Assembly (NCBI GenBank): GCA_964521865.1
Contig: CAZFTJ010000001.1
Coordinates: forward strand, 256,715 to 320,714
Direction: 5' to 3'
Length of the DNA stretch: 64,000 bases
Source of the DNA: an uncultured Spirochaetota bacterium
GTDB lineage: Bacteria; Spirochaetota; B62-G9; DRHN01
The notes under the pieces were generated by a model that saw only the letters and a list, made by a program, of their open reading frames with translations, ran no database searches and was not told the origin of the DNA. The position numbers were made by a program, and so were the translations under genes. Positions 3,995-56,071 of this stretch are shown piece after piece; the stretch's first letter is position 1; the number at the start of each line of letters is the position of its first letter.

Positions 3995-3997
3995 TAG

Positions 3998-8740: not shown

Positions 8741-8847
8741 AAGCATATTTTAAACTTGACTGTATTTTTACAGCTTTTATGATCATTATCATTATCCGAG
8801 TTAAAAAAAGATAGATCCACTTTTCGAAATGTGGAAATGATTAATTA

Positions 8848-11170: not shown

Positions 11171-11179
11171 TAAATAGTC

Positions 11180-11974: not shown

Positions 11975-12554
11975 ATATTATTATTAACTCGTGGTATTTA
12001 AAGTACTTACCTATCGATTTAAGGTTTATGGGGAAATATTGTTTTTTTTGTAAGGAATAATTGTAAATATTTTTCAATCGATTCTTTATAAAAAAATCAT
12101 AATTAATAAAAATCCTGTGCGTTTTATCATGCTGAAATCCTTTTTCTCCCGGCACAATTATAATAATTCTTTGTAAATCTAAGTGATTACAGGACTGAAA
12201 CAGATTATTTAAAGTTTTAACCGGGTCATTTAAGTGTTCTAAGACATGACTCATAATTAATGTACTGTATTCGCCAGGTTTTAATTGTTTGAGCTCATAA
12301 TTATCTAATTCAGGGTTGTAATATTCTACATTTAATCCCATTTTTTTACAGTATCTAACTGTTGCTTCATTTACCTCATAACCAATTGATCCATCTGGTA
12401 ATAATGAAAGTAATTCTCCAATACCACAGCCAAAATCAATAGTTTTTCCGATTATATATTTTAGTATATTTTTTAAATAGATTTTCCGTATTTTCTTTCG
12501 AATAATACTCCTTTTTAATTGGTAGTCAGTATACTTCTGATCATATTTTAACAT
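11958..12554 (-). CDS. Class I SAM-dependent methyltransferase
   Basis: Motif I IDFGCGIGELLSLL, motif post-I GYEVNEAT and motif II/III LIMSHVLEHL. Confidence 0.75.
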   Translation of the reverse strand: MLKYDQKYTDYQLKRSIIRKKIRKIYLKNILKYIIGKTIDFGCGIGELLSLLPDGSIGYEVNEATVRYCKKMGLNVEYYNPELDNYELKQLKPGEYSTLIMSHVLEHLNDPVKTLNNLFQSCNHLDLQRIIIIVPGEKGFQHDKTHRIFINYDFFIKNRLKNIYNYSLQKKQYFPINLKSIGKYFKYHELIIIYDKKN

Positions 12555-12569
12555 TTTGATTGGAGTTAT

Positions 12570-12947
12570 TTATTTTTTACGACCATACTCTTTTATTTTT
12601 TTTAATTCATATTTTAATATTCCAATTTCTTGAACAAGGTTTTTAACATTTTCGGTAAGTTTTGAAATAACAATAGAATAGTGTATAAGTATTGAGAGAA
12701 TTGCAGTAAAGAGAAGTATAAAAGCAGCAGCGGGTGGATAACTTACCCCTAGCAATTTTGCGATTAAATCAATACCTCTTCTCCAAAAAGAAAAAAGAAT
12801 AAACAATCCACTGAAAAATAACCATAGGAGTGAATACTCTTCCTTCAACTTTTTTTTTCTTATTAATTCGACAATGAAAATAGTAATTATTACACTTCCA
12901 AAAAGTGCAAAATACTGAATTTTATTTGTGGAGTAACTTTTAAACAT
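12570..12947 (-). CDS. Small membrane protein, DUF2304-like (frequently partnered with GtrB/ArnC-type synthases)
   Basis: 125 aa with three TM helices plus a charged coiled C-terminus (LVQEIGILKYELKKIKEYGRKK). Its start overlaps the stop of the GtrB-like gene. Confidence 0.45.
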   Translation of the reverse strand: MFKSYSTNKIQYFALFGSVIITIFIVELIRKKKLKEEYSLLWLFFSGLFILFSFWRRGIDLIAKLLGVSYPPAAAFILLFTAILSILIHYSIVISKLTENVKNLVQEIGILKYELKKIKEYGRKK

Positions 12948-13671
12948 ATTCTGTAGTCCTTGTATGTTTTTTATTTTTCGGATAAGTGTATGTTATTAAT
13001 ATAGCTAAAATTACTTTAATCATATAATATAATGAATTAAATCCTTTTATAGAAGATTTTCCATTTATTCTTTTTTTCATTTCAATTGATACTTCTTTCA
13101 TTTTAAAATTGTTTTTATCCAATAAAATGATAGCTTCAGGTTCAGGATAATCTGTTGGGTAATAATTAGCAAAAAATTGAATTGCTTTCTTGTTATAAGC
13201 TCTAAAGCCAGAAGTGTTGTCTGAGATACTTTGCTTTATTAGGATTGAATTGATTAATGAAAAAATTTTAATACCTATTTTTCTTAAGAATGATGACGTA
13301 TATCCCTTTTTATTTCCACAAAATCTTGAACCAATAACAACGTCGGCCTTATTTTTAAAAATAGGTTCAATAATTTTAGATACTTCAGACGCATTGTGCT
13401 GGCCGTCACCGTCGAATTGGAAGGCGTAGTCATAATCTTTTAACACCGCATATTTAAAGCCTGTTTGAACGGCACCACCTATTCCAAGATTACATGGTAA
13501 ATTTATAACTTCAGCCTTCTCGGTACCTGCGGCAATGCTTCCGGTATCATCCTCTGAACCGTCATTTACGACAAGTATATCTATATTTGGATACTCAGCT
13601 TTTAAGGAATTTATTACATTGAGTATATTTGACTGCTCGTTATATGCTGGAATAATGGCAAGTATTTTCAT
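12940..13671 (-). CDS. Polyprenol-monophosphate sugar synthase (GtrB/ArnC/DPM1-like GT2)
   Basis: MKILAIIPAYNEQSNI…ILVVNDGSEDDT…DGDGQH (DXD-containing DPM1 family). It has no C-terminal TM extension. Confidence 0.8.
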   Translation of the reverse strand: MKILAIIPAYNEQSNILNVINSLKAEYPNIDILVVNDGSEDDTGSIAAGTEKAEVINLPCNLGIGGAVQTGFKYAVLKDYDYAFQFDGDGQHNASEVSKIIEPIFKNKADVVIGSRFCGNKKGYTSSFLRKIGIKIFSLINSILIKQSISDNTSGFRAYNKKAIQFFANYYPTDYPEPEAIILLDKNNFKMKEVSIEMKKRINGKSSIKGFNSLYYMIKVILAILITYTYPKNKKHTRTTEYV

Positions 13672-13692
13672 GTTATTTAATAATCGAACGAT

Positions 13693-14631
13693 ATGTCGAA
13701 AAATACAATAAATATTCTTATGGCAACGTTTAATGGAGAAAAATATATTGAAGAACAGGTTGAGTCAATAGTAAACCAGAGCTTCAAAAATTGGAAGCTC
13801 TTTATACGTGATGACGGATCGACGGATAATACAGTAGGAATTATCAAAAAGATTGCTTGTGTAAATCCTGGAAAAATATTTTTTGTGGATAGCTCAAAGA
13901 AGTCTCTCGGTGCAAAGGGTAATTTTGCCCAATTGCTTGAATCGACCGATGCCGAATACTTTATGTTCTGTGATCAGGATGACGTCTGGCTTAAGGATAA
14001 AATTGGATTGACATATAACAGGATGATTGAGATTGAAGAGAAAATCGGACATGAAAAACCGATCCTTATTCACACGGATTTGAAAGTTGCAGATGAGAAT
14101 CTTGCTGTTTACGCACCTTCGTTTTCTCAGTATCAAAACTTGAAACCTTTAAAAGTAAAGTCGATCAACAGGCTCCTTGTGCAGAATGTTATCACCGGTT
14201 GTACGGTAATGATCAATAACGCCTTGAAAAAAAAGGGGCTTCCGATTCCGAGAAAGGCAATAATGCATGACTGGTGGCTCGGGCTTGTCGCATCCGCTTT
14301 TGGTATTGTAGATTATATCGATGCACCCACGGTGCTTTACAGGCAGCATGGTATCAATGCAATTGGGGCAAAAAAGTGGGATTTTCGTTATATCGTATAT
14401 AGTGCACAAAGCTTAAAGGAGAAGGCAGCATCGATAAAAATGACAATCGATCAGGCGAAGAGTTTCATCGATAATTACGGTAAAACACTTGACGTTAAAT
14501 CTTATGAAATAGCAAATGTATATTCCCATCTTGATGAATATTCTTTTTTTAAAAAAAGGTTTAAGATTATTCGGTACAATCTGTATAAAATCGGGTTTCT
14601 GAGGAACATCGGGATGTTTATCAGGATGTAA
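13693..14631 (+). CDS. Glycosyltransferase family 2 (WbbL/rhamnosyltransferase-like)
   Basis: ILMATFNGEKYIEEQVESIVNQSFKNWKLFIRDDGSTDNT and a CDQDD DXD motif. Confidence 0.75.
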   Translation: MSKNTINILMATFNGEKYIEEQVESIVNQSFKNWKLFIRDDGSTDNTVGIIKKIACVNPGKIFFVDSSKKSLGAKGNFAQLLESTDAEYFMFCDQDDVWLKDKIGLTYNRMIEIEEKIGHEKPILIHTDLKVADENLAVYAPSFSQYQNLKPLKVKSINRLLVQNVITGCTVMINNALKKKGLPIPRKAIMHDWWLGLVASAFGIVDYIDAPTVLYRQHGINAIGAKKWDFRYIVYSAQSLKEKAASIKMTIDQAKSFIDNYGKTLDVKSYEIANVYSHLDEYSFFKKRFKIIRYNLYKIGFLRNIGMFIRM

Positions 14632-14661
14632 ACTGCACCGTCATGCCTGGACAATACGTTT

Positions 14662-15486
14662 ATGTACTACATTACAGCTTCCATTGTTGTTTACAACAAC
14701 AATCGAGATGACCTCAGTAAATTATTATCATGTCTTTTTAAAATAAGGCTGCTTGGCAGGATATTCGTAATAGACAACTCAATCTCAGGCCGGTTTTCAT
14801 CTCAATGTAACGGTGAAAGAGTAGAATATATCGGAAATCCCGTTAATCCAGGATACGGTGCGGCCCATAATCGAGCGATTGAAAAATCTATCGGTACTTC
14901 CAAATATCACATCGTAATGAATCCTGATATTTATTTCAATGATGGTTCCGTTGAAAAACTCTTTTCATTCATGGAAAAAAACAACGATGTGGGGCTTGTA
15001 ATGCCCAGGATTCTCAATCCGGACGGATCTACCCAGTATCTCTGCAAGTTGCTTCCCGCACCTTCCGACCTTTTATTCAGGCGGTTTTTACCGTTTAAAA
15101 AATTAACTGAGAGGCGAAATGGAATATATGAACTGCGATTTACGGGGTATAATAAGGTGATGGAAGTGCCGTACCTCTCCGGATGTTTCATGTTTTTACG
15201 GACCGAAGCCCTTAAAAAAGCAGGGATGTTTGACGAGAGGTTTTTTATGTACCTTGAGGATACCGATCTGTCGCGGCGCATACACGCGCACTATAAAACC
15301 GTGTATCATCCGGATGCCGAGATATATCACAGGTATGAAAAAGGGTCGTATAAAAGTACGAAACTTCTATGCCGCCACATGGTTTCTGCATTTAAATATT
15401 TCAACAAATGGGGCTGGTTTTTCGACAGGGAGAGAAAGAAAATAAATGTCGATACTCTTAAGAAATTGCGGAATATAAACGATTGA
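14662..15486 (+). CDS. Glycosyltransferase family 2
   Basis: ITASIVVYNNN…GYGAAHN…LEDTDLSRR pattern of the GT2 family. It is the last gene of the very AT-rich block. Confidence 0.7.
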   Translation: MYYITASIVVYNNNRDDLSKLLSCLFKIRLLGRIFVIDNSISGRFSSQCNGERVEYIGNPVNPGYGAAHNRAIEKSIGTSKYHIVMNPDIYFNDGSVEKLFSFMEKNNDVGLVMPRILNPDGSTQYLCKLLPAPSDLLFRRFLPFKKLTERRNGIYELRFTGYNKVMEVPYLSGCFMFLRTEALKKAGMFDERFFMYLEDTDLSRRIHAHYKTVYHPDAEIYHRYEKGSYKSTKLLCRHMVSAFKYFNKWGWFFDRERKKINVDTLKKLRNIND

Positions 15487-15514
15487 GAAATCTTGAATAG
15501 GCAGGAAACAAGGG

Positions 15515-16801
15515 ATGAAGAAACGGCTGGTATTTTATCTTTTTTACGGAGTAGTCATTTTTTTCATCCTCTATATCTGTTTTCTTCTTTATTTCATGGA
15601 TGTACAGGAAGCAACGCTGTTTTTTTTAGAGAGGATCGGGAATGTCATCCTGATTATCATAGTGGCGCTTTTTCTCTCAAACCTCTTCGATCTTATCTCA
15701 TTTAAAAGGGAGATCAAGAAAGAATCGAATCTGTTGAATGAAGTGTTTTCGGTTGCCGGAAAAACCTTGATTATCATTCTCATTACGTCATTTGTGGAAT
15801 TTTTTATTTTTTACAGAACGAAACTCGGAAGGGTGATTTATGTAAATCTCTTTGTCCTCCTCTCCCTTTTTCTTGTAACGGAACATGTTGTCGTTAATTA
15901 TCTCATTCGAAAAAGAAAGCTGAAGATACTGTGGCTGAGCACTATACCCTGCATGCAGGTTGAAACTGATTATTCGCTTGATATAAGCCGCAACAATATA
16001 GAAAAAAATTTTGTCAACAATGACCAGGAATACGATCTTGCAATCTATGATTATCCGCCGAAAGATCATGTCAATCTAAACGACCTTGTGCATACGATTA
16101 TTTCGATAAAAAACCCGATCGATCTCATAACCTACGTCGAGGAACGCACAGAAAAGATCCCGCTGAAGTATGTCGATGAGCTGTGGCTGTTAAAGAATAT
16201 ACGGACGTATGAATCCGTCTACGATAAGCTGCGACGATTTATAAATTTTTTCAGCTGTATTGTATTGCTGATTATTCTTTTTCTTCCATCTTTTTTCTTT
16301 GCACTCGTTCATACGGTAATATCGAAGGGTCCTGTATTTTTTGTTCAGGAGCGTGTCGGGTACAAAGGGAGAAAATTCAACCTGATCAAGTTCAGAACGA
16401 TGATCGATCGGGCAGAAGCGGACGGCCCTCGTTTTACTGAAGAAAACGATCCGAGGGTCACCGGATTCGGAAAAATCATGCGCAGGTTCCGAATTGATGA
16501 GGTTCCGCAGCTGCTGAATGTGCTCAGGGGTGATATGAATTTGATCGGCCCCCGGCCCGAGAGGGAGGAGTTTATCGAACACCTCGAAAAAGAGATCTCT
16601 TTTTATAAACTTCGATTGGAGATCAGGCCCGGCCTGACCGGCTGGGCTCAGGTAAACTTCGCCTATGCCGGCTACAATACGAACGATCACCTGAGAAAGC
16701 TCGAATACGATTTATACTATATCAAAAACAGGAGCCTCCCATTGGATCTCATCATCCTTCTGCGGACTATTAAAACAATGCTGACCCGAAAGGGCACGTA
16801 A
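15515..16801 (+). CDS. Undecaprenyl-phosphate sugar phosphotransferase (WbaP/CpsE/WcaJ-type PGT, bacterial sugar transferase domain)
   Basis: The C-terminal catalytic domain RVGYKGRKFNLIKFRTM…DPRVTGFGKIMRRFRIDEVPQLLNVLRGDMNLIGPRPE is highly characteristic. The N-terminus has TM helices. GC content rises at this gene. Confidence 0.9.
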   Translation: MKKRLVFYLFYGVVIFFILYICFLLYFMDVQEATLFFLERIGNVILIIIVALFLSNLFDLISFKREIKKESNLLNEVFSVAGKTLIIILITSFVEFFIFYRTKLGRVIYVNLFVLLSLFLVTEHVVVNYLIRKRKLKILWLSTIPCMQVETDYSLDISRNNIEKNFVNNDQEYDLAIYDYPPKDHVNLNDLVHTIISIKNPIDLITYVEERTEKIPLKYVDELWLLKNIRTYESVYDKLRRFINFFSCIVLLIILFLPSFFFALVHTVISKGPVFFVQERVGYKGRKFNLIKFRTMIDRAEADGPRFTEENDPRVTGFGKIMRRFRIDEVPQLLNVLRGDMNLIGPRPEREEFIEHLEKEISFYKLRLEIRPGLTGWAQVNFAYAGYNTNDHLRKLEYDLYYIKNRSLPLDLIILLRTIKTMLTRKGT

Positions 16802-16813
16802 CGGTTCGGGCCG

Positions 16814-19121
<2,308 letters not shown>

Positions 19122-19187
19122 AAAGACGGGAATAATATCTTTGATTATTGGTGATTGAAGATGTATAGTGTGTGTAGGTAGTCGGAC

Positions 19188-19901
19188 TTGACATGGAGGT
19201 TTGATGAGGTGGCTACAAAAGTAGAAGAAAGAATTGGTTCTCTTGAAAGTATAATGAAGGACCTTGCCTATGCTCATTTGAGAACAGAGGGGAGTCTGAG
19301 AGAGCTGAGTGAGGAGATGAAGGCCTTCAAGGAGGAGATGAAGGCTTTCAAGGATGAGATGAAGGCCTTCAAGGGTGAGATGAAGGCCTTCAAGGATGAG
19401 ATGGGATCTTTCAAGGATGAGATGGGTGATTTCAAGGATGAGATGAAAAATGAAGTGAAAAGAATGAACAAGCAGTGGGGAGACCTTGCCAACAGGCTGG
19501 GAACCGTTGCAGAGGATATTGTTGCTCCCAATATTCCAAGGATAGCAAAGGATTATTTTAACTGTGAAATACTTGAGGATTTTTCAATAAGAAGAAGGGT
19601 GGTAAATAAAAAAGATACCGCAAAAGTAAGGGAGTTTGATGTACTCGTTAAATGTAAAAATATTGTAATTATCAATGAAACGAAATCTACTCCAAGGATT
19701 GAGTATATAGATGGATTTATCAATGTGCTCAACGAATTATTTGATTATTTTCCTGAATATAAAGGCTTGAAGGTGATCCCCATTTTTTCTTCGTTTTCCA
19801 TTCCCGACGACCTGTTAAACTATCTGACAAACAATAAGATCTACGCAATGGCTATGAAGGATGATACAATGGATTTGCTTAATCCGGAGTTGGTACTATA
19901 G
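19188..19901 (+). CDS. Coiled-coil protein with internal heptad tandem repeat and putative PD-(D/E)xK nuclease-like C-terminal domain
   Basis: Contains 6.5 copies of (E/D)EMKAFK encoded by a 21-bp tandem DNA repeat. The C-terminus has D…E-x-K spacing (EFDVLV…IINETKS). The likely true start is the GTG at 19209, 9 nt after GGAGG. Confidence 0.45.
   Translation: MTWRFDEVATKVEERIGSLESIMKDLAYAHLRTEGSLRELSEEMKAFKEEMKAFKDEMKAFKGEMKAFKDEMGSFKDEMGDFKDEMKNEVKRMNKQWGDLANRLGTVAEDIVAPNIPRIAKDYFNCEILEDFSIRRRVVNKKDTAKVREFDVLVKCKNIVIINETKSTPRIEYIDGFINVLNELFDYFPEYKGLKVIPIFSSFSIPDDLLNYLTNNKIYAMAMKDDTMDLLNPELVL
19312..19450 (+). repeat. 21-bp in-frame tandem repeat (~6.5 copies, consensus GAKGAGATGAAGGCCTTCAAG)
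   Basis: Read directly in the sequence: gaggagatgaaggccttcaag, then gaggagatgaaggctttcaag, gatgagatgaaggccttcaag, ggtgagatgaaggccttcaag, gatgagatgggatctttcaag and gatgagatgggtgatttcaag. Confidence 0.9.
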
Positions 19902-19940
19902 TAACGTATTTTTTTATTGAACGTACAAAAGATAAAAATA

Positions 19941-20110
19941 GTATAAAACCCAGAGTTCTTGAGGAAAGTTCAGCGAAAACTTTGTTAACCATTCGTCTGT
20001 TCTCTCAATGAATGCTGCTTTCTCTTTTTTAAAAATTATCAGATTATCCGCATCACTGCCAGGAATCCCCCCTTTTTTTGCCAGAGAGCCGAACAGGTCG
20101 AAGAAACAGG
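19941..20110 (-). pseudogene. Truncated MNT-type nucleotidyltransferase remnant (paralog of 21030..21476)
   Basis: The minus-strand translation FDLFGSLAKKGGIPGSDADNLIIFKKEKAAFIERTDEWLTKFSLNFPQELWVLY aligns to the intact MNT (LFGSLAEKRGVPGSDADILIILEKDDRPFIDRTAGWVERFSLDFPLEVFPY). It has no start codon or N-terminal part. Confidence 0.6.
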
Positions 20111-45464: not shown

Positions 45465-45478
45465 TCAATTCTCATTTT

Positions 45479-45514
45479 AAGGCTCCTTTTAACGATACAT
45501 CGTAAAAGGAGCCT
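45479..45514 (+). terminator. Perfect 12-bp inverted repeat hairpin after lpd (aggctcctttta…taaaaggagcct)
   Basis: Seen directly in the sequence, but no clear downstream T-tract. It is probably an operon-end terminator and marks the core/island boundary. Confidence 0.4.
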
Positions 45515-45615
45515 ATTCCCATTGTACAGAAATCTATTAAAAATCTCCTGCATCAGGATCAGGTCCGCTCAATTCTACGCTGCCAATATCTTAACCTCCC
45601 TATAAATCAATTAAT

Positions 45616-45644
45616 TTGACTTTTATAAATTTTCGGATTATAAA
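45616..45644 (+). promoter_or_regulatory. Sigma70-like promoter TTGACT-N17-TATAAA upstream of the SNF2 helicase gene
   Basis: ttgact (45616-45621), a 17-nt spacer, then tataaa (45639-45644). It is followed by an AAAGAGG RBS and the ATG at 45689. Confidence 0.45.
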
Positions 45645-45688
45645 AAATGCACAAACATGCGGGGAAAAAGTTAAAAAAAGAGGCCGCA

Positions 45689-48373
45689 ATGAAAGAAAAA
45701 ACGGAAGAAAAAACGATAACTTCTTTAAAAGACATACTATCGTATCTTACCTACAGACAGGCCTGCAAGCTGCTTGGCCCTGAAGGGGAGAGGCTTATAC
45801 GGAAAGGCGGGAAATGGGATATCGATCTTTACGAACAGGTAACACTGGATAATGAAAAGTTTATCCTCGATCTAAATGAGGCGGTCGTTACTATTGAATT
45901 GAACCCTATGAATACAAAGAAGCTTCGCTTCTTATGCAGCGCCTGCTCTTCTATTTGCGAACATATCGGAGCTGCGTTTTCGCTTATTCTTGAGGAAAAA
46001 CTGTCATTAGGCCTTTCAGCTCCACCGCCTGAACTGACGCCCATGGAAAACTTGAGTGAAGAACAATTAATCAATCGGGCGCTAAATGATAGAAAAGAAA
46101 AAGCGAAAAAAGAAAAAATGTCCCTCGCATCGATGAACGAGGCCCAGTTATGGACAGATTACACTGTCACAAGTTATTCATCCGGAAAAACCTACAGGGT
46201 GGCCCTCAGAGGATGGGAACCGGGAGAATCCTACTGCACCTGTCCGGACTTTAAAATAAACACCCTCGGCACCTGCAAACATATAATATATACACAGGAA
46301 TGTGTCGAAAGGCAGTTTCCAGAAAAAATAAGAGAAAAGCCATACAAACAGAATAACATTGCCTTACACCTGCGGTATGGAAAGAATGTGGAATTACGTC
46401 TAATTGTGCCCGAGGGGTTAGACGCGGAGGCGGAGGAGATTGTGAACCCTTTAAGAAACCGCGTGATCTCTGATATCCCCGATTTACTGACGCGTATCAG
46501 TAAATTAGAACAGTCAGGACATGAGGTGATAATCTATCCTGATACGGAGGAATATATAAATAATCTTCTTTTTCATCGAAAGATTCAAAAGAAGGTTGAT
46601 GAAATAAGAAGCAATGCGAGGCATCACCCTCTGCGGAAAAACCTGCTTAAAATAGAGCTTCTTCCCTATCAACTGGACGGCATAGCTTTTGCCGTAGGCG
46701 CAGGAAGAGCTATTATTGCAGACGACATGGGTCTGGGAAAAACCATACAGGGTATAGGAATTGCTGAACTGTTCAATATTGAGGTTGATATTTCCAAAGT
46801 ATTGGTTATATGTCCGGCATCTGTAAAATCTCAATGGCGTCTTGAGATAAAACGCTGTTCTAACAGAAGCTGTCAGTTGATAATAGGCGCGGCAGAAGAA
46901 AGAATCCGTCAATACGATAACAAATGTTTTTTTACGATCTGTAATTATGAGCAGGTGCTTCGTGATATTAAAACAATAGAGACAATTTCATGGGACCTTA
47001 TCATTCTGGACGAGGGGCAGAGAATAAAAAACTGGGAAGCAAAAACCACACAGGTTGTGAAATCCTTGAGATCGCCATTTGCCCTGGTGCTTACAGGCAC
47101 CCCTCTTGAAAACAGGCTGGACGAACTGTATTCGGTAATTCAATTTATCGATAACAGCAGGCTGGGACCGTCCTTTCGTTTTTTTAACAGGCACAGAATT
47201 ACTAATGAACAAGGAAGGGTGTTGGGTTATCAAAATCTCGATGAGCTTCGGGAAAAACTTAAACCCATCCTCCTTCGGAGAACCCGCAGTATGGTACTGA
47301 AGGATCTGCCTCCAAGAACAACCGAAATCTTACGAATACCGCCCACAGAGGAGCAGGCGGATATTCATAACAGCAATAAGAAAATAATTTCCACCATTGT
47401 TTCAAAAAAATACCTTACTGAAATGGACATTTTGAGGCTTCAAAAAGCACTTTTACTCTGCAGAATGGCTGCAGACAGCACCTATCTGGTAGATAAAACT
47501 CCACCCGGGTATTCCAGCAAGCTGAAGGAACTGGAACTGCTTCTTGAACAGCTCAATTTTGAAGAAGACAGGAAAATAATCCTATTTTCAGAATGGACAA
47601 CCATGCTGAATCTGATAGAACCGCTCATTGAAAGGCAAAGTATAAACTACATCCGCCTGGATGGGTCTGTTCCGCAGAAGAAAAGACAGGGTTTGATGCA
47701 TCAGTTTCAGCATGACCCTGGTTGCAGGGTGTTTATTACTACCAATGCCGGTTCAACGGGGCTTAACCTTCAGGCTGCCAACACAGTCATCAATGTTGAC
47801 CTTCCATGGAACCCTGCAGTGCTCGAGCAGAGGATATCACGCGCTCACCGCATGGGGCAGAAAAGGCCTGTACAGGTATATCTTCTGGTAACAGAAGATA
47901 CTCTTGAAGAAAGCCTGCTTGATACCCTCTCTGCAAAGCATAAATTGGCCATGGCCTCTCTTGATGCAGCCTCAGAGGTTAACGAGGTATCCTTTACCGG
48001 CAGTATCGAAGAATTAAAACGCCGCATGGAGGTGCTTTTAGGAACAAAACCTGATGCCGCTATTGATGAAAGCCGGAAAAAAGAGCTGGAAAGGGAGGCT
48101 GCAAAACATGCACGAAGAGAAAACGTTGCAATTGCCGGAGGCCAGCTTATGAGTGCTGCATTTTCTTTTATAGGAGAACTGCTTGGTACCAATAGGGCAG
48201 TGAATCAGGGTACTGAAGATGTTGACAGGTTTAAAAATCTTCTTTATGAGTGTATGGAGAAAAATGAAGACGGCAGTTTAAAGATGACGGTTAACTTCCC
48301 TGATGCCTCCGTACTTGATAATCTGGCAGGCGTTCTGAGCACAATAACTGCGAATGAAAACGGTTCTCAGTAA
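45689..48373 (+). CDS. SNF2-family helicase with N-terminal SWIM zinc finger (defense-island helicase)
   Basis: SWIM CTCPDFKINTLGTCKHI; motif I DDMGLGKTIQ; motif II ILDEGQRIKN; motif III LTGTPLENRL; helicase-C motifs TTNAGSTGLNL and QRISRAHRMGQ. The track ORF begins at 45647, but the RBS-supported ATG is 45689. Confidence 0.85.
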   Translation: MKEKTEEKTITSLKDILSYLTYRQACKLLGPEGERLIRKGGKWDIDLYEQVTLDNEKFILDLNEAVVTIELNPMNTKKLRFLCSACSSICEHIGAAFSLILEEKLSLGLSAPPPELTPMENLSEEQLINRALNDRKEKAKKEKMSLASMNEAQLWTDYTVTSYSSGKTYRVALRGWEPGESYCTCPDFKINTLGTCKHIIYTQECVERQFPEKIREKPYKQNNIALHLRYGKNVELRLIVPEGLDAEAEEIVNPLRNRVISDIPDLLTRISKLEQSGHEVIIYPDTEEYINNLLFHRKIQKKVDEIRSNARHHPLRKNLLKIELLPYQLDGIAFAVGAGRAIIADDMGLGKTIQGIGIAELFNIEVDISKVLVICPASVKSQWRLEIKRCSNRSCQLIIGAAEERIRQYDNKCFFTICNYEQVLRDIKTIETISWDLIILDEGQRIKNWEAKTTQVVKSLRSPFALVLTGTPLENRLDELYSVIQFIDNSRLGPSFRFFNRHRITNEQGRVLGYQNLDELREKLKPILLRRTRSMVLKDLPPRTTEILRIPPTEEQADIHNSNKKIISTIVSKKYLTEMDILRLQKALLLCRMAADSTYLVDKTPPGYSSKLKELELLLEQLNFEEDRKIILFSEWTTMLNLIEPLIERQSINYIRLDGSVPQKKRQGLMHQFQHDPGCRVFITTNAGSTGLNLQAANTVINVDLPWNPAVLEQRISRAHRMGQKRPVQVYLLVTEDTLEESLLDTLSAKHKLAMASLDAASEVNEVSFTGSIEELKRRMEVLLGTKPDAAIDESRKKELEREAAKHARRENVAIAGGQLMSAAFSFIGELLGTNRAVNQGTEDVDRFKNLLYECMEKNEDGSLKMTVNFPDASVLDNLAGVLSTITANENGSQ

Positions 48374-48630
48374 AACCATATGATTTTGCATCAATTTCAC
48401 GTTTAGCAGAGCCAAGGCTCTCGATCGCTTTTTCCCACCAGTAATGAGTTACTTCTGGATGCTTTTCATCTTTATTCATAGCAGTATGCCATGCATGGTA
48501 ATTTCTTCATATATTGACAAAACCGAAAAAACCCCAGTATTCAATGCATCTTCATCTATAGCAAGAGTATTCAAGTTTAATACTCTCGATCGTCTTCATT
48601 TTCAAAATTCCTCTATGCTGAAATTTGTTA

Positions 48631-51600
48631 TCATAGTTTATTCCATTCAGCTCGAAAAATACAGCTCTCATATACACCGCCTTTCCCATGTAAAAGGCCC
48701 TTTGCAAAGAGAGAAAGTCCGTGATCTGTGGTAAGTATTAAACGCCGCTTCAACTGTCTGCAGGCTTCGAGCAGTTGAGGGAGGTCTGTTTTAAGAATAT
48801 GGTTCACAATTCTAACCATCTCAGATAATCGCATTCCCTTTCTATGTGCACCTTGGTCTATTGCTGACAGCCGAATCACTACCGGTATATCAGGCTTAAT
48901 GGGCAGAACATGATCCAGAAGAGCGTGTTCTTCATTTCCTTTCAGATTGTGATACACAACGTTTCTTGCTGAAAACTCTTCCACCGGGTCGTTATGAAAA
49001 CCAAAGAGCCTGGCTATTGAATCTACGGTATCAGGTTTTGCTTCAAGTCTTGCCCATGATTGCGGAACCTCATCTGTAAAATACTCAATGCTTTTGATCG
49101 ATTCCATCCATACATCCGGTGCCGCACCGTCAATAATGACAACCACAGGACAATCATCCAGAATAATAATAGGGACTTCAGATAATTTTGAAAGCCATTC
49201 TTCACCCAGATCAGACACCTCCTGCACTGCCTTTTCAGCAATATACTGTAATTCTCCGGTGGTCCAGGCATCATTCATGAGCTCTTCTGCGAAAACCCTC
49301 ATGCTCAGACGTGCCGGGTACTGCTGATCCATTCTCTCTGCAATTGTCTTTAGTATTCGAAGATGGCGCCTGATGTCATCTGCCGTATCATGATCCGTAT
49401 GAGAGGAGTGAATATCATCTTCACCAGGCAACACGGCTCCTGTCAGGATTCTTTCTGAAAGCAGACTCCAGGCCATCCTTATAGCCCCTGTATGGTATCT
49501 TTCCTGAGTAATAAACCGTAAAAGTGATTCAGTATCAATTAATTGCAACGTCTCTTTCAGCCTGATAGAAGGGAACCTTTTTTCAAGTCTATTTTCGATC
49601 TCTACGATTTCCTCCTTTTGTATGGGTTCCTGTTGAAATTCTCGTGAAAAAAGTCCCGCATGAAGCAGGGACCACCAGTCAAGTGAATCTAAAACAGAAC
49701 CGGGAGCAACCCTTTGCTCAAGATCTTCATCAATAGCCAGCAGTGTCTTTTCGTCAGTTATCGAAGCCCATTCATCGACAATCTTTCGAATCTGCGATTG
49801 TGCAAGCCTTCTTCCTGCCAGTCTGGATATAAGCTCACTTAATTTTTTATGCTGTATATGGACTTTTCCTGTCAGTGCCCGGGACAATTGCAAGGTTGTC
49901 TGTTCATCAAAAACAGCAAGTAAATGCGCCGGCGTTATCGTGTCTTCCTGTACAATTTTGCTGATCTGTTTCAGGCGTTGCGACATATCCGGATCAGCAT
50001 CCTTGACTGCGTACGCATGTGCAGTGATTGACTCCAGCACCTCTGGTTTTTTTATTATATCCACATATTCCATAAAAAACCTGTTAATAGCCTCTTCGGG
50101 CTCTATTTTTTCTCCTGGTTCAGGCACAGCTCCCACATCTCCGGGTTGGTATCCGCAGGTACATACAGGCGAGCGGATTAACTCTTCTGAAATTTTTCTT
50201 CTGCATTGTTCTTTTCCGGGTGCTTTTAAATCCCTTATAAACTGCTCCAGCCCCGGGGGTCTGTCAAGGGCCTCAATAGCGGCAAGACGTTCTAAAGTAC
50301 CCGCAGCCCTTTCGGCAGATTTTGATAATGAAGGCTTTTGAAAGGACCTGTAATACGCAGCATGCTTTTTTGAGTAAAAGGCAAAATAATACTCTCTAAA
50401 ATGTGAAAACACCGAGTTCAAGTGTTCACCCTCATCCCCGATGATAAATATTTCCGGTTTTTCAACAAGGGAAATTACCGTTTTTCTTAGCTCCGCAAGC
50501 TCTCTGTCCTGTTGAGTTGCTTTTTTTACAGCAGAATGGTGGATATAGTGGTGAATGAATACAAACTGTTCGGCGTTGTGCAAAAGAAAAGCCCTGAGTT
50601 TTTTTAAAAACTGAATATCTTCATTTTTCAGTCCTGTCCCTCGCCATGTTTTCAGGAACCGTTCCAGACCCTCTTTCGCTGAATGGGAAATTTTTATCTC
50701 ATTTACCAGATTGGTCAGCGAATTTATTTTTTGATCAATCGCTGAAAGATTAAATACCTTAAATGCTGAAAATTCTGCCACATGTGAAAGCTGTGATTGT
50801 ATTGCTACAAGCATTGTTGATGCTGTTTCTTTAAACTTTATTACGGCTTTCCATGCCTCACGCTGCTGGTGTAATCCAAAAGAATCCCAGGTTGACGAGG
50901 GAGCTAAAAAATCACATTCCGTCTTCAGTGTTTCCCTGTCATTTTGATTTATAAGCTCTCCCAGGGCAACCTCATCCGCTTTTTCTACTGATATAAAGTG
51001 CAGAAAATCAACGGGTACGGTGCGTCCGTTTTTCAGCAGTGTAATCAGTCCGCCGCAGGCCAGTGCAGAGAGAAGAAAGAGAAATGTATCTTCAGGAAGT
51101 CCGTATGCGCCTGTTTGAAGCGCATGTGCAATCTCTTTTATCGAAGCAGGGCCTGCCGGCTTGAGGAGACCGGAAAAGAAAGACAAAAACGGATGTCCTG
51201 TCATGTCGGGTGAAAAAACATACGATCCCCCTTTCAGCCGGACAAGTCCGATAGGTACTGCCAGGCCGTCTATTGCCTCACCCAGCCCCTTTGCCTGAGC
51301 TTCCCGAAGCAGTATACTCCCCGGAGTGACCAATTCATCGAGAAGCCGCTGGTATAAACGGGGTGAGGGATGAATCCTTCTGGGCGCAATTTCTCTGAAT
51401 TTCGGGTACCGATCATCCAGGATGACTTCCCCTGCAGCCTCTAAAAGACGGTCGAAACGCTTGAGCTGGCGCACTGCTGCTCCAACCTGGATCTGCGGGT
51501 CGGTAAAATTCCCTGAATAAAATGCCTCCATAGCAGCCTGGTGAACAGCCGGCCTGATGCGTTCCAATCTCTCTTTTACGGGCTGTATTAGAGGAGCATC

Positions 51601-53646
51601 AGCAGGGTTCGAGGGCTTCAGCTCCGAGGCAACAAGCCTTGTTGCTAAAAATTCTTTAAAAAGCGATGTCTTTTCTTTTGGAAAAGTAATCTGCCATACT
51701 GCCGTATAATCAGCACTGTATTCCCTTTCCCCGAAGGTAATGATGACTGCAAAATCGTACTTCGCACAGGATATCTCATGTGATAAACGATGTACGTCAT
51801 CATCGGAGAGAAACCGGATAAAAACCCTGCGGATGCTGAAGTGCCAGGTTATCTGACGTACTACTCCCTTTTCCCATAAGGAAATACCCGGCCATACTTC
51901 CGATTCCGGTATATCTAAGAAAGGCTCAGATAAAAGCCTTGAATCATCGTCTTCCAGATCACGGGCAGTACGAGAGATTCGCTCTTTTAAGATTTTCCCC
52001 GGATCATCCTGTGTAATGACCGTATAAACGGTATCCAGGGGGTTACCGGATTCAGAGGGCTGCTTTATCAGAAACCGGCTCACTTCAACGATTGGATCGA
52101 GCAGGGCCTCGGCTATAAACCGGATATTGAATCCCGGCATTTGAAAATCCAGTGAACAGGCTGCTATTTCAGCCAGGCGACCTACAGGAGGAGTATCCGC
52201 CGTGGGATGAATTTTATAGAGGACGAGTATCCTTACGAGTCTGCGGGCAAGATTACGGTCATCAGAATCCTCTATCACATCGTCGATGACCTTATCAAGA
52301 TGGGGAATGACATGGCGTGGATATACATTGAATGCCGAAAACTCGGCAAGTCTCAATGCAAAATGATCGTAAATGCTGTCGGGTGCCAGTACCTCTGTTG
52401 CAGGCTGTTGAAGAATTCCTCGGATATTCCGCCTTTTATCCCCTGCTATGCGTGAGTAAATAAAATCCACTATACCTCGATGCTCTGAAAAGAGATCACC
52501 CAGGCCGTCAAGAAGAGCAATGGTTGCCGGATGAACAGGATAGGTCTGTCTGAAGCTATCGTAGGTCCAGGAGAATGTCGAAAATTGCCTCTTGTAAGCT
52601 TCATAAATGCGATATATTTCTTCATCGGCTCCCGGTTTACGGTGTACAAGGCGGTGAGATATGAGTGAACGGATATGTACAGTTGAAAGACTGAGTTTTA
52701 CGGGGAATCTGTCTTTAATTTTCCGGAATGTTACCTGCGAGATATCCCCGGTACTTTCAATGCTCTCCTGAACCGCGGCAATAATCCATAGCGGCTCACC
52801 TGCAGTAAGCTCACCCAGCAGTTGAAGTGTACGGGCATCTTCATTTAATTCCTGTGCGGTGCGTTTAGAACGGAAAAACTCGGATAGCTCATCAATAAGC
52901 AAAAAAAGCCCGTCAAACCCTGCATTTTTTACTGCCGATAGTGTTCGTTTAAAAGTTTCGTGTCTTTCTTCAACAAGTGCCTCAGGGATTTTAAGCCCCG
53001 TGCTTTTTATTAAACGCATGCCGTATATGTACGCTTCATGAGGATATTCATCTATCCATTGCTTCAGGCCATCCGTATCGAGGTCTTCTGCCTGCAGACC
53101 GTCGGTCTTTTTCCGGTCGGCTGAAACGCCCAGCAGCTTGATAAAAGATTCGGCGGTTTCAGGTTCCTCTATAAGGTTTTTTAAATGATTGAGAAAAGAA
53201 GAAACAGGAGTTAATACTGCCTCAATGCCCTTCGATTTCAGGTGGTTTTCCACTGCTTCAACAACAATCTGTTCTAAAGGAGTTTCAGCCCTGTAATTCA
53301 CCAGTGAAATTGCCACAGGTAAAAACCGTTTACCGGATTCCATGACACGCTTGAGCCCGCCGTGGCGACCGGTAAGTATCTCTGCTCCTGCAATTCCTGC
53401 AAGCCAAGCATACAACGCCGCTAAAAAATGAGACTTGCCCGAGCCGAAATCACCCTGAAGAAAATACCCCTGCCCCTGGTGACCGAGGAGTGACTCTGAG
53501 ATAACAGTAAAGTGAGAAAAAACCTCTGTTGTAAATACAAAACTACCGGCAATCTTGTTGGACTCCGTCTGTCCCTCTTTAAGGCGTATAACGGTTTTTA
53601 CCGGCGGGATTTCTACTATATCACCGATACACAGTGATTCGTTCAT
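48631..53646 (-). CDS. Giant fusion protein: N-terminal BrxC/PglY-like (or KAP-like) P-loop ATPase, central helical region, C-terminal PglZ-type alkaline-phosphatase-superfamily domain
   Basis: Walker A LQGDFGSGKSHFLAAL, Walker B FLLIDELSEF and the sensor IIAAVQ. The C-terminal ~200 aa carry PglZ/alkaline-phosphatase metal-ligand motifs VVVIIDGAAPD, DQGAH, LILTTDHG and HGKGGVYE. 1671 aa; lower GC than the core genome. Confidence 0.7.
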   Translation of the reverse strand: MNESLCIGDIVEIPPVKTVIRLKEGQTESNKIAGSFVFTTEVFSHFTVISESLLGHQGQGYFLQGDFGSGKSHFLAALYAWLAGIAGAEILTGRHGGLKRVMESGKRFLPVAISLVNYRAETPLEQIVVEAVENHLKSKGIEAVLTPVSSFLNHLKNLIEEPETAESFIKLLGVSADRKKTDGLQAEDLDTDGLKQWIDEYPHEAYIYGMRLIKSTGLKIPEALVEERHETFKRTLSAVKNAGFDGLFLLIDELSEFFRSKRTAQELNEDARTLQLLGELTAGEPLWIIAAVQESIESTGDISQVTFRKIKDRFPVKLSLSTVHIRSLISHRLVHRKPGADEEIYRIYEAYKRQFSTFSWTYDSFRQTYPVHPATIALLDGLGDLFSEHRGIVDFIYSRIAGDKRRNIRGILQQPATEVLAPDSIYDHFALRLAEFSAFNVYPRHVIPHLDKVIDDVIEDSDDRNLARRLVRILVLYKIHPTADTPPVGRLAEIAACSLDFQMPGFNIRFIAEALLDPIVEVSRFLIKQPSESGNPLDTVYTVITQDDPGKILKERISRTARDLEDDDSRLLSEPFLDIPESEVWPGISLWEKGVVRQITWHFSIRRVFIRFLSDDDVHRLSHEISCAKYDFAVIITFGEREYSADYTAVWQITFPKEKTSLFKEFLATRLVASELKPSNPADAPLIQPVKERLERIRPAVHQAAMEAFYSGNFTDPQIQVGAAVRQLKRFDRLLEAAGEVILDDRYPKFREIAPRRIHPSPRLYQRLLDELVTPGSILLREAQAKGLGEAIDGLAVPIGLVRLKGGSYVFSPDMTGHPFLSFFSGLLKPAGPASIKEIAHALQTGAYGLPEDTFLFLLSALACGGLITLLKNGRTVPVDFLHFISVEKADEVALGELINQNDRETLKTECDFLAPSSTWDSFGLHQQREAWKAVIKFKETASTMLVAIQSQLSHVAEFSAFKVFNLSAIDQKINSLTNLVNEIKISHSAKEGLERFLKTWRGTGLKNEDIQFLKKLRAFLLHNAEQFVFIHHYIHHSAVKKATQQDRELAELRKTVISLVEKPEIFIIGDEGEHLNSVFSHFREYYFAFYSKKHAAYYRSFQKPSLSKSAERAAGTLERLAAIEALDRPPGLEQFIRDLKAPGKEQCRRKISEELIRSPVCTCGYQPGDVGAVPEPGEKIEPEEAINRFFMEYVDIIKKPEVLESITAHAYAVKDADPDMSQRLKQISKIVQEDTITPAHLLAVFDEQTTLQLSRALTGKVHIQHKKLSELISRLAGRRLAQSQIRKIVDEWASITDEKTLLAIDEDLEQRVAPGSVLDSLDWWSLLHAGLFSREFQQEPIQKEEIVEIENRLEKRFPSIRLKETLQLIDTESLLRFITQERYHTGAIRMAWSLLSERILTGAVLPGEDDIHSSHTDHDTADDIRRHLRILKTIAERMDQQYPARLSMRVFAEELMNDAWTTGELQYIAEKAVQEVSDLGEEWLSKLSEVPIIILDDCPVVVIIDGAAPDVWMESIKSIEYFTDEVPQSWARLEAKPDTVDSIARLFGFHNDPVEEFSARNVVYHNLKGNEEHALLDHVLPIKPDIPVVIRLSAIDQGAHRKGMRLSEMVRIVNHILKTDLPQLLEACRQLKRRLILTTDHGLSLFAKGLLHGKGGVYESCIFRAEWNKL

Positions 53647-53718
53647 GGATTTTTATCCAGCATATTTTTCACATGGTAAACCAGGGAGAAAATCAGGATG
53701 CCTTACTGTTTGGTTTTA

Positions 53719-54681
53719 TTAATTCTTGTCCAGCATATTTTTCAGCCTCTGTATTCGTCCATACAATGATTTTTCATCCGGGAATAAGCCTGAAAGCTCC
53801 CGGTAAAAATTAATAGCCCGCTCGAGCTCTCCGATTCGAGCACATGCAGCACCGTAACCGGAATGCAGATACATATCTTTTGGGTCGACCCTTAAAAGCT
53901 CTTCCATGATCGGGACGGCCTTTTTTTCCTGACCGGTCTTGGCAAGTACAAAGGCCTGTTTCCGCTGAATCCGGTGCTGTGAGCCTTTCGACTCTATTTT
54001 TTCATACTGTTTTATGGCAAGTTCCGACCTGCCCGACCTTCGACAAAGCGAGGCATAAATCTCACCATAAATCGAAGGCAGCGATGGGATTTTCGCCAGT
54101 TTTTCCATGCGTTTGAGCACAGGATAAATACCATAACGCCGGATTTCCAGTTCTGTCAGCTCCCAGAGCGCTGAACGATGATGCGGCTTCAGTTCCAGCC
54201 ATCTCTGACAGGCCTCAAATGCCCTGCTGTATTCTCCGAGCCCTGAAAGAGCTTTTACCCTGTACCGAATACTGTCCCTTTCAGGCATATCCCAGCCTGC
54301 AAGATGAGACAAAATGTCCTGCCAGTTTTTCAGGTTTATGTGGCATTCCAGTATGCCTTTTTGTGACCGTAACTTCAGCTTTTGATTATTCAGACTTTCT
54401 TTATAATACTGTAATGCCTCTTTATACCTGTGTAAACCAAAGAGCGCATCTGCTGCCGATAGTACGGCGTAAGGATTGGTGGAATCTAAGGTCAATGCCT
54501 GAGTTGCAATAGAAAAACCCGATTCATATTTTTCAGCCCGTATCAATGCATTTGCCTGATGGGTAAGCCAGAAGACATTCTGCTTTCTGTTATTTAAATA
54601 TTTCCTTTCAGCATAATGGGCAGCTTCTAAATATTTCTCCTGCCGCATCAATTCACAGAACTCATTGTATTCTTTTGACAT
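53719..54681 (-). CDS. TPR-repeat protein (co-directional, 72 bp upstream of the ATPase-PglZ gene)
   Basis: Multiple 34-aa TPR-like units (…YAVLSAADALFGLHRYKEALQYYKESL…). About 38% GC, so it is part of the low-GC island. Confidence 0.65.
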   Translation of the reverse strand: MSKEYNEFCELMRQEKYLEAAHYAERKYLNNRKQNVFWLTHQANALIRAEKYESGFSIATQALTLDSTNPYAVLSAADALFGLHRYKEALQYYKESLNNQKLKLRSQKGILECHINLKNWQDILSHLAGWDMPERDSIRYRVKALSGLGEYSRAFEACQRWLELKPHHRSALWELTELEIRRYGIYPVLKRMEKLAKIPSLPSIYGEIYASLCRRSGRSELAIKQYEKIESKGSQHRIQRKQAFVLAKTGQEKKAVPIMEELLRVDPKDMYLHSGYGAACARIGELERAINFYRELSGLFPDEKSLYGRIQRLKNMLDKN

Positions 54682-54954
54682 ATGGTTTTATCTATTTAAA
54701 TTCTGGTTTTTTGTACCTTTCATTAAAAAGTGAGCCTGTACAATGTTAAAATTGCCTGTCATTGCATTCTATAGGTAAAAACCATTAGGCAGGTGTCGAT
54801 TTGAACCTTTTAAGTTTGGAAGTTCACTTGCCTATATATTCTACGTATATACGAGAGAGTTTACAGATGAAAAATCAATAATCCTTGATCAATTCTCAAC
54901 AATGATTCTTCAATTATATCAGTTACTACGCATAAAGGCAAATCCCGTGAGGGG

Positions 54955-55164
54955 TTATATTTTTTCAATATATTCCGGTATTGATTGCGCAGTGTCTGGA
55001 AAATTACTTAATATTTTCTGATCCATTGTAACAAGCCGTACGCTCAAGTCTCGAGCCAAGTTGACGAACTCGCAATCATATGCAGAACAACTGCTGTTCC
55101 GGACGAGCTTTAATATTTGAATCGTGCTTATTTCAAATTCATTATTTTTTAATAAATCTTCCAC
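54955..55164 (-). pseudogene. Truncated VapC/PIN toxin remnant (C-terminal half only)
   Basis: SAYDCEFVNLARDLSVRLVTMDQKIL matches the VapC C-terminal consensus (DA..v.lA..l...L.T.D..l). There is no N-terminal catalytic Asp region and it begins with GTG. It lies in an AT-rich flank at the island boundary. Confidence 0.5.
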
Positions 55165-55183
55165 AATAGGTGATTTTCCCCCG

Positions 55184-56071
55184 CTAAACCGTATGCTCTT
55201 CGTTCGCGATCTCGTAGCCGCGGTCCCCTTCTCGAATAAAGCCCTCCCGCACGAGGCCGGCGATCGCCTCTTTTATAAGGCAGTCGTCCCTTTCGGTTTT
55301 CACGGCTATCTCCCGGTCCGAGAGTCCGGGCTCCTTGAGCAGGGTCCTCAAAACCATGCCCCGCACCTGTCTCCTGGAACCTTCAAAAGGCGGCTGTCTC
55401 GTGTAATGCCTGCTCCTGCTGTTCATCGACCCGAAGCGCCTCTTCAGCTCGGCGCCGTAGTCCATCATTGCGTAATACCAGGTGCGGAGGTTTTTCCGGT
55501 CGAGCGTCCGTTCGACAAGAAGCCGGATGCACCTGTCGTGTATATTGTCGCGGCCCGAAAAGAAGAAGTGGATAAAAAGGGACCTGATATTGGTTTCGAT
55601 AAACACGGCGGGAACATCGAATGCAAACGCCAGAACGGCCGATGCCGTTGCATGGCCGATGCCGGGGAGCGAGAGCAGGTTTTTATAGCTGTCGGGAATC
55701 CTGCCGGCGAATCTATCGACAACGACGCACGCCGATTTTTTCAGATACAGGCACCTCCTGTTGTAACCCAGCCCCTGCCATTTCAGGAGCACCTGGTGGA
55801 GCGGCGCTTTGGAAAGAGCGCGTATGCCTGGAAAGGCCTCGATGAAATCATTGTACTTTTTCAGAACACGTTCGACCTGAGTCTGCTGGAGCATGATTTC
55901 AGAAACAAGTATACGGTAGGGGTCTTTCGTTCTGCGCCACGGCAAATCGCGCCCGCGTCCCTGATAAAAGCTGTGGATAAGGTCTTGAAACCTGGATACG
56001 TCGTTATCCGTTAGATGCTCGGGGTCTGGAAAGGAGCCTGCCTGTTCTGTCTGACCGTCTTTGCCGTTCAT
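55184..56071 (-). CDS. HhH-GPD superfamily DNA glycosylase (EndoIII/MutY-like, no Fe-S cluster cysteines) with C-terminal winged-helix-like extension
   Basis: RILVSEIMLQQTQVERV, the HhH LPGIGHATASAV and the catalytic D region. It lacks the C-x6-C-x2-C-x5-C motif. Confidence 0.7.
   Translation of the reverse strand: MNGKDGQTEQAGSFPDPEHLTDNDVSRFQDLIHSFYQGRGRDLPWRRTKDPYRILVSEIMLQQTQVERVLKKYNDFIEAFPGIRALSKAPLHQVLLKWQGLGYNRRCLYLKKSACVVVDRFAGRIPDSYKNLLSLPGIGHATASAVLAFAFDVPAVFIETNIRSLFIHFFFSGRDNIHDRCIRLLVERTLDRKNLRTWYYAMMDYGAELKRRFGSMNSRSRHYTRQPPFEGSRRQVRGMVLRTLLKEPGLSDREIAVKTERDDCLIKEAIAGLVREGFIREGDRGYEIANEEHTV

Follow-up and report, generated by a model that had tools for sequence, protein, structure and literature searches.

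A BrxC::PglZ-like fusion gene with a TPR partner in an uncultured Spirochaetota bacterium: a methylase-free module resembling the BREX core

How bacteriophage exclusion (BREX) systems stop phage is still unresolved. Recent work placed a BrxB-BrxC-PglZ complex at the centre of BREX and revealed that PglZ is a nuclease (PMC12205998, PMC13326643). BrxC self-associates, binds DNA in an ATP-controlled manner and joins BrxB and PglZ in a core complex (PMC13326643), while BREX PglZ cleaves both cyclic and linear oligonucleotides (PMC12205998); the BREX subtypes differ widely in composition (PMC12839542). Here, a three-gene island is described in a stretch of 64,000 nucleotides (the window, to which all coordinates refer) from an uncultured Spirochaetota bacterium (GenBank assembly GCA_964521865.1, contig CAZFTJ010000001.1, positions 256,715 to 320,714 of the forward strand). 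In this island, a BrxC-like ATPase and a minimal PglZ-like domain are joined in one polypeptide, which is accompanied by a tetratricopeptide repeat (TPR) protein and by an SNF2 helicase with a SWIM finger. The module is most like the BREX core, yet it fits none of the described BREX types, as it lacks the modification enzyme and all subtype-specific genes and its scores fall far short of the equivalog cut-offs. It represents a real family that is conserved in several phyla and has apparently not been described.

In the BREX type 1 core BrxB-BrxC-PglZ of Acinetobacter and Salmonella (PDB 9zn5, 9zll, 9zdx, 9nv3), BrxC shares its fold and profile with the N-terminal ~600 residues of the window fusion protein, and the catalytic motifs of PglZ are in register with its C-terminus. 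Unlike type 1, the window holds both enzymes in a single polypeptide, without BrxB, BrxA, BrxL and PglX, and its module has a constant TPR partner and sits outside defence islands. Moreover, the type 1 PglZ is a protein of 850 aa, whereas the PglZ part of the window protein comprises a catalytic core of ~180 aa and a connector, with neither the N-terminal domains nor an insert of ~75 aa. The type-3 'BR' systems (PMC12839542) share with the window a minimal catalytic PglZ, a BrxC-like ORC/Cdc6 ATPase and a helicase of the SF2/SNF2 type. However, their ATPase is a DUF499 protein, their PglZ is a standalone gene, an N6-adenine methyltransferase is always present and an inactive STAND subunit usually so, and no TPR partner has been reported for them. 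In the HerA/FtsK 'capture' system (PMC12839542), PglZ and a DUF6079/BrxC-type ATPase likewise occur outside canonical BREX and without PglX, but as separate proteins rather than fused, and among seven components that include HerA/FtsK, a STAND NTPase, DUF4007, GNAT and TGT, none of which is present in the window. The PglZ domain is also found in PorX, the response regulator of type IX secretion (PDB 7pv7, 8tef and others), which carries a receiver domain, acts in signalling and has no AAA+, TPR or helicase partners. None of the BREX subtypes described in PMC12839542 has the fusion architecture or the TPR partner; this survey of 2026, the most complete among recent ones, makes no mention of TPR, SWIM, Spirochaet or RecD, and no description of a BrxC::PglZ and TPR architecture, or of this gene set, was found in the literature searched. 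The initial annotation of the locus, made from the sequence alone, had recognised in this gene combination no described defence system, and this judgement held, since PADLOC and NCBIfam perceived only a weakly BrxC-like N-terminus.

The core of the module is the BrxC::PglZ-like fusion gene, an open reading frame (ORF) of 1671 aa on the minus strand (48631..53646). More than 400 full-length homologues of ~1650 aa each were found, which public annotation names only 'DUF6079 family protein' or 'hypothetical', and more than 130 positions were invariant in family alignments of 25-46 sequences. Residues 1 to ~600 (51847..53646, minus strand) form a BrxC-like AAA+ module of the ORC/Cdc6 type. The BrxC/PglY-like ATPase proposed initially was confirmed here by agreement among Pfam, PADLOC, PDB profile and fold: the N-terminus matched Pfam BrxC-PglY_N/DUF6079 at 4e-30 and PADLOC BrxC at 2e-24, and the family profile, when compared with the PDB, matched the solved BrxC chains 9zn5_A and 9zdx_C over residues 32-336 (E 9e-12 to 3e-10). 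An AlphaFold2 (AF2) model of residues 1-1200, with a predicted local distance difference test score (pLDDT) of 85, retrieved Acinetobacter BrxC as the top Foldseek match (E 6e-12 over ~600 columns, template modelling score of 0.62-0.67 on the target), with ORC/Cdc6 proteins ranking next. The Walker A motif GDFGSGKS (aa 65-72; nt 53431-53454, minus strand) and the Walker B residues D252-E253 (nt 52888-52893, minus strand) were invariant. In NCBIfam, the N-terminus scored 60 bits for BREX_BrxC (cut-off 400) and 31 bits for PglY (cut-off 1700); it is homologous to BrxC, but as a distant relative and not as an equivalog. In the middle of the protein, an invariant cysteine cluster, C1148 and C1162-x-C1164 (aa 1148-1164; 50155..50205, minus strand), falls in a loop with no regular secondary structure in the AF2 model and may be a zinc site.

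The C-terminal part opens with a helical connector (aa 1400-1489; 49180..49449, minus strand), modelled as three long helices ahead of a phosphatase-fold core, and closes with a minimal PglZ-like domain of the alkaline-phosphatase superfamily (aa 1490-1671; 48634..49179, minus strand), recognised by fold and motifs. The AF2 model of residues 1400-1671 (pLDDT 92.2) found its best Foldseek matches in PorX and BREX PglZ, and the closest solved structure to the C-terminal domain was BREX PglZ. The connector helices co-aligned with BREX PglZ chains only, of which two were aligned over 253 and 238 of 272 residues, as against ~155-165 residues for other alkaline-phosphatase enzymes. The predicted core (pLDDT 92) contains six main strands (E102-106, 130-134, 165-169, 190-194, 237-240 and 263-269 of the model) flanked by helices. 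All seven catalytic positions (D1506, T1540, D1597, H1601, D1641, H1642 and H1653) were invariant among 22-25 sequences, and their predicted layout is that of a binuclear metal site with a threonine nucleophile; conserved metal-coordinating and nucleophile residues are among the PglZ hallmarks named in PMC12839542. In hhalign, these positions aligned with D472, T507, D583/D586 and D630-H631 of type-1 PglZ. The same comparison gave a DHG-HGG interval of ~10 residues in the fusion family versus an insert of ~75 residues in type-1 PglZ, and the model has only a short hairpin (E246-248 and E251-253) between the DHG and HG motifs, in line with a PglZ cap that was probably reduced or lost in this family.

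A profile of the C-terminal domain, searched against 1.84 billion representative proteins, found only 101 (50%-identity clusters), nearly all of them from the fusion family; beyond the family, that search gave only a few short, weak links and did not reach the canonical 850-aa PglZ. One weak outlier, P0214 (1e-9), passed the Pfam PglZ model, others being sub-threshold, and it provides a transitive link. Because of the fold, the invariant residues, this transitive link, the hhalign register and the short DHG-HGG interval, the C-terminus is regarded as a minimal, divergent PglZ-like core, assigned through its predicted fold and its motifs and not through a Pfam model. The PglZ domain named by the initial annotation is therefore retained as a PglZ-like domain on the strength of fold and catalytic positions, but not as a Pfam family member, given that PF08665 failed to match even the isolated domain. 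Pfam, NCBIfam and PADLOC detected no PglZ in the C-terminus, their sole match being a sub-threshold 'Metalloenzyme'.

The TPR gene (53719..54681, minus strand) encodes 320 aa and lies 72 bp upstream of the fusion gene, as described at the outset; its product consists of TPR repeats only and matched several Pfam TPR families. The distribution of the family was assessed by a pattern scan of 185,579 species genomes, which yielded 89 confirmed stretches, from which 79 loci were kept, and partner genes were evaluated by tblastn and by clustering of the ORFs of these loci. The 79 loci came from Spirochaetota, Desulfobacterota, Fibrobacterota/Chitinispirillaceae and the Verrucomicrobia–Lentisphaerae–Kiritimatiellae–Planctomycetes group. 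In 66 of the 68 loci with enough upstream sequence, a TPR gene immediately preceded the fusion gene on the same strand, with orthologues of 40-80% identity that often overlapped the fusion start. The other two, L015 and L019, were negative for TPR in a hidden Markov model search and had unrelated genes directly upstream of the fusion gene; they are true exceptions without an adjacent TPR gene. Thus defined, the constant unit of the module is TPR plus fusion, a two-gene operon. At the junction of the two genes in the window, a direct duplication of 73 nt (53642..53744, minus strand; repeat D2, also read from the sequence) placed a second copy of the TPR 3′ end (KNMLDKN) just before the fusion ATG. 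The genes are 5 nt apart in the closest relative, L049, and at the ancestral junction stop and start probably overlapped in an ATGA until the duplication separated them.

The third gene of the island, convergent with the fusion gene, encodes the SWIM/SNF2 helicase (45647..48373, plus strand; 908 aa counted from 45647). The start at 45689 is more plausible, because AAGAGG occurs 8 nt upstream of it and homologues align from about residue 26; with this choice of start, the coordinates and strands first given for all three ORFs were confirmed. The reading as an SNF2 helicase with a SWIM finger was also upheld, as both helicase domains were far above their Pfam cut-offs (SNF2-rel_dom 9e-45, Helicase_C 2e-27), with intact motifs (Walker A DDMGLGKT and a DEGQ box), and a canonical SWIM motif of the CxCxnCxH type, CTCPDFKINTLGTCKH, was present at aa 197-212, Pfam SWIM itself remaining just under its cut-off (16.9 versus 19.6 bits). 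PADLOC matched the helicase to DpdE (4e-72), ZorD (2e-71), DrmD (2e-50) and BrxHI (2e-39), in the helicase core only, and the NCBIfam helicase scores of 107-172 bits compare with equivalog cut-offs of 500-1500 for DrmD, ZorD and DpdE. The likeness to DISARM DrmD, Zorya ZorD, Dpd DpdE and BREX BrxHI/BrxHII is that of a generic SNF2 core: the N-terminus of the window helicase bears SWIM motifs, where these defence SNF2 proteins have nuclease or other domains, and no partner genes of DISARM, Zorya or Dpd are present at the locus.

The SWIM/SNF2 gene was found upstream in 10 of 48 loci, and downstream and convergent in the window, L002 and L041. Its position directly upstream recurred in three phyla, namely in spirochaetes, in Desulfobacteraceae (L012 and L087) and in Verrucomicrobiia (L034). 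Orthologues adjoining the module were 59-62% identical in spirochaetes and 36-37% identical in one Desulfobacteraceae and one Verrucomicrobiia locus, where a SWIM match was also obtained. Present in about a quarter of the loci, the helicase is a third, optional gene of the module. In spirochaete loci (L010-L077; e.g., L086:15153-17297), another helicase gene, of the RecD2 type (OB_YrrC, HHH_RecD2, AAA_30, SH3_13, UvrD_C_2), adjoins the fusion gene at its 3′ end or overlaps it there, and some of these loci present what appears to be an operon of four genes, SNF2-TPR-fusion-RecD2; in the window, no RecD2 gene was found. An RNase D-like gene preceded the module in 9 Desulfobacteraceae loci. One metagenome-assembled genome (MAG), JAUVWI01 (Spirochaetales CSMAG_1186), contained two divergent copies of the module, for which MAG contamination is possible: L049, whose fusion protein is 79% identical to that of the window, and L052, 51% identical and linked to RecD2. 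Directly 3′ of the fusion gene and on the same strand, a gene of ~278 aa with no Pfam match was observed in two loci (L082:15049-15885, L088:15185-16021), and a cluster of ~281-aa ORFs lay ~67 bp downstream of the fusion gene in five loci (e.g., L064:14938-15855). These downstream genes could be a clade-specific extra component or mere synteny.

The neighbourhoods of the module were examined in seven Pfam-annotated loci (10 kb) and through 96 flanking ORFs from 24 loci. Neither a methyltransferase nor BrxA, BrxB or BrxL was detected in the window, in the seven annotated neighbourhoods or among the recurrent families of the flanking ORFs, and neither a PglX N6-adenine methyltransferase nor the PAPS reductase of type 4 was found in the flanks, in those neighbourhoods or in those families. 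Of the subtype genes BrxA, BrxB/iSTAND, BrxL and PglW, none was identified, and the likeness to BrxHI/HII is explained by the generic SNF2 core. The initial claim that PglX, BrxA, BrxB and BrxL are absent was thereby substantiated at the window locus and extended to the surroundings of the 79 related loci, and no PglX-like methyltransferase was found in the flanks (PDH operon, HhH-GPD, Opu transporter). The accompanying suggestion that a helicase and a TPR protein stand in place of the Brx genes needs amending, in that the conserved unit is TPR plus fusion; the SNF2 helicase is facultative, occurring upstream or, in few loci, downstream. In the scanned neighbourhoods, no toxin-antitoxin cluster, restriction gene or other defence gene recurred near the module, and RecD2 and SNF2 accounted for all PADLOC matches in the 25 most frequent families of flanking ORFs. 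Signalling genes, such as those for a cyclase or a receiver domain, did not recur beside the module in the scan of flanking families.

The island is flanked upstream by the pyruvate dehydrogenase (PDH) operon and downstream by an HhH-GPD glycosylase gene and an Opu-type ABC transporter, and no methyltransferase was found in these flanks. Its left edge lies just past the lpd terminator hairpin, read from the sequence at 45480..45514 (plus strand); homology with two syntenic relatives, L089 and L090, covers the lpd 3′ end and stops at ~45476-45477. The right edge is at ~54884, because the segment 54885..55018, which includes the former 3′ end of the glycosylase gene, is shared with L089 (blastn, 78% over 134 nt). 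In 1-kb windows, the guanine-cytosine (GC) content was 0.40-0.47 across 45.5-55.2 kb versus 0.52-0.61 in the immediate flanks, and the GC content at third codon positions (GC3) was 0.41-0.46 in all three island genes versus 0.67-0.70 in lpd and E2. The low-GC island noted at first is real, but its contrast with the flanks had been somewhat overstated, because the syntenic loci of the two relatives have only 0.50-0.52 GC overall and the PDH operon stands above such a background. The atypical GC3 common to the three genes suggests that they arrived together. A search for signatures of insertion (direct or inverted repeats at the flanks, integrases, tRNAs) found only short repeats of chance quality; the island consists of the three genes. 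A promoter and terminator scan gave a result not above chance as a whole, the best promoter-like match for the TPR operon being 54941-54913 (minus strand).

The history of the island can be read from the same two relatives, both of which have the syntenic order IleRS-PNPOx-PDH-lpd, with HhH-GPD convergent to it and the Opu transporter next. The spacer between lpd and the glycosylase gene measures 308 bp in L089 (L089:10931-11237) and is a clean 122 bp in L090. The L089 spacer is a mosaic of fragments of the SNF2 and fusion genes, collinear and in the same orientation as in the window: two fragments correspond to the SNF2 5′ end (window 45661-45683, 96% identity; 45755-45786, 94% identity) and two to the 3′ end of the fusion gene (48625-48669, 84% identity; 48837-48900, 81% identity), followed by the shared right flank (54885-55018, 78% identity). 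Therefore, the SNF2/fusion/TPR arrangement was present in the common ancestor of the window organism and L089 and was later deleted in one lineage. It follows from this deletion that the module is dispensable, and that it is gained and lost as one unit. The idea that it was recently inserted into an empty site was considered and ruled out, as the L089 spacer is a scar holding island fragments; a search for a plasmid, phage or viral carrier found none. Beside the island, the HhH-GPD glycosylase gene has lost its last ~15 codons to a segment of ~183 bp (55019-55201) that is not in L089; its former C-terminus, FPDTAQSIPEYIEKI with its stop, is still readable downstream (~54955-55003, minus strand); no second copy of the ~183-bp segment was detected in the window or in the fetched loci.

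Elsewhere in the window, positions 1-20000, of which the first 14 kb have 25-33% GC, encode a surface-polysaccharide cluster with an ABC-2 transporter, a GHMP kinase, several GT1/GT2/GT4 glycosyltransferases and a Bac_transf priming transferase. For two of its large ORFs, 86-2464 and 8848-10800, Pfam gave no match.

Regarding function, a role of this methylase-free, BREX-core-derived module in surveying or restricting foreign or aberrant DNA, independently of methylation, is considered the most likely, because the module lacks a methyltransferase, is rare and patchily distributed, and comes and goes as one block; we give this role about an even chance. This role is also favoured by analogy, as the only characterised relatives of both enzymatic modules are defence proteins. 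A more specific proposal, put forward tentatively and with somewhat less confidence, is that TPR plus BrxC::PglZ, optionally with SWIM/SNF2 or RecD2, constitutes an autonomous, methylation-free immune or anti-mobile-element system, in which a single chain would act as an ATP-gated nuclease and the TPR protein would recognise the target. Judged by the invariant motifs, both active sites are intact in the one fusion chain. The covalent fusion could stand in for the BrxB bridge and hard-wire the BrxC-PglZ contact, and ATP-dependent assembly on DNA, for which the middle region may supply the DNA-binding part of a BrxC-type ATPase, would position or license the PglZ-like domain, a putative metallo-phosphodiesterase/nuclease, for nucleic acid cleavage. 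The TPR protein would be an obligate regulatory, scaffold or sensor subunit, and the SWIM/SNF2 translocase, or RecD2 in many spirochaetes, an optional motor for remodelling or unwinding the target.

Several observations weigh against a defence function. A RecD2 gene, which encodes a repair-type helicase, lies directly and operonically 3′ of the fusion gene in 19 spirochaete loci. The surroundings, in which a defence island had been sought, consist of housekeeping genes instead (tRNA synthetases, Dus, SpoU and RNase D, besides regulators and genes of metabolism). No member of the family was found in 72,556 plasmids, 50,697 phage genomes or 2.9 million viral contigs, and the phyla are cleanly separated in a neighbour-joining tree of the fusion protein, which places the window inside the spirochaete clade. 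Mean column identity reaches 51-56% over ~1650 aa, a strong conservation more in keeping with purifying selection on a cellular function than with an arms race. No component for self/non-self discrimination is visible in the module. Moreover, the Pfam PglZ model PF08665 (cut-off 25 bits) matched neither the full protein nor the isolated C-terminus, even with E up to 10, and the hhalign comparison with type-1 PglZ reached a probability of only 18%, although all catalytic motifs were in register; the type-1 alignment used was narrow (Bacillales and one Lactobacillales) and makes this a weak test either way. The defence function of the module and the roles of the TPR protein and of aa 600-1400 are our inference. 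The most substantial alternative, although rather unlikely in our estimation, is that TPR and BrxC::PglZ form, with RecD2 and/or SNF2, a lineage-specific complex for repair, replication restart or chromosome processing on the cell's own DNA. Such a complex would agree with the housekeeping neighbourhoods and with a synteny kept within clades (recD2 in spirochaetes, the RNase D-like gene in Desulfobacteraceae), with a tree congruent with the phyla, with the high conservation of the fusion protein, with the absence from the mobile and viral sequences searched, and with the DNA glycosylase gene that adjoins the module in the window. Against maintenance of the genome count the very sparse distribution of the family, its clean deletion in a close relative that retains the flanking genes, the atypical composition of the module in the window, the two divergent copies in one MAG, and the fact that the only characterised homologues of both enzymatic modules belong to a defence system. 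The same evidence bears on the possibility, raised from the start, of conserved core genes outside defence islands: the location is indeed of that kind, but the genes are not core genes, being rare and deleted in a relative.

Two further explanations involve what is known of PglZ and of BREX. The PglZ-like domain could resemble PorX in hydrolysing cyclic or linear oligonucleotides, with the ATPase and the TPR protein as a regulatory switch in nucleotide signalling; the activity of BREX PglZ on such substrates (PMC12205998) and the common use of TPR proteins as signalling adaptors are compatible with this idea, which is nevertheless improbable, considering an ATPase of the DNA-binding ORC/Cdc6-BrxC type, recurrent partners that are DNA translocases (SNF2 and RecD2), and the lack of any cyclase, receiver domain or signalling gene recurring beside the module. 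Still more improbable is that the locus is half of an ordinary BREX system, with the PglX methyltransferase and other subunits at other genomic sites. Of this genome, only 64 kb are visible, and wide compositional differences exist among BREX subtypes (PMC12839542), but no methyltransferase or Brx gene occurred within 10 kb in the annotated loci or among the recurrent flanking families, neither the fusion architecture nor the TPR partner belongs to any described subtype, and the BrxC and PglY scores are far under the equivalog cut-offs.

The natural fusion of BrxC with a minimal PglZ across phyla is independent support for the idea that the two activities work as one unit, and a module of two or three genes without a methylation arm is a much simpler experimental system in which to determine what the ATPase-nuclease core senses and cuts. 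If genome maintenance proved to be its role, BREX-type machinery would be seen acting on the cell's own DNA, which bears on the origin of BREX. If the module is an autonomous immune system, it would show what the enigmatic BrxC-PglZ core does alone; and if it defends its hosts, it would constitute a methylase-free branch of the BREX superfamily in poorly studied anaerobes.

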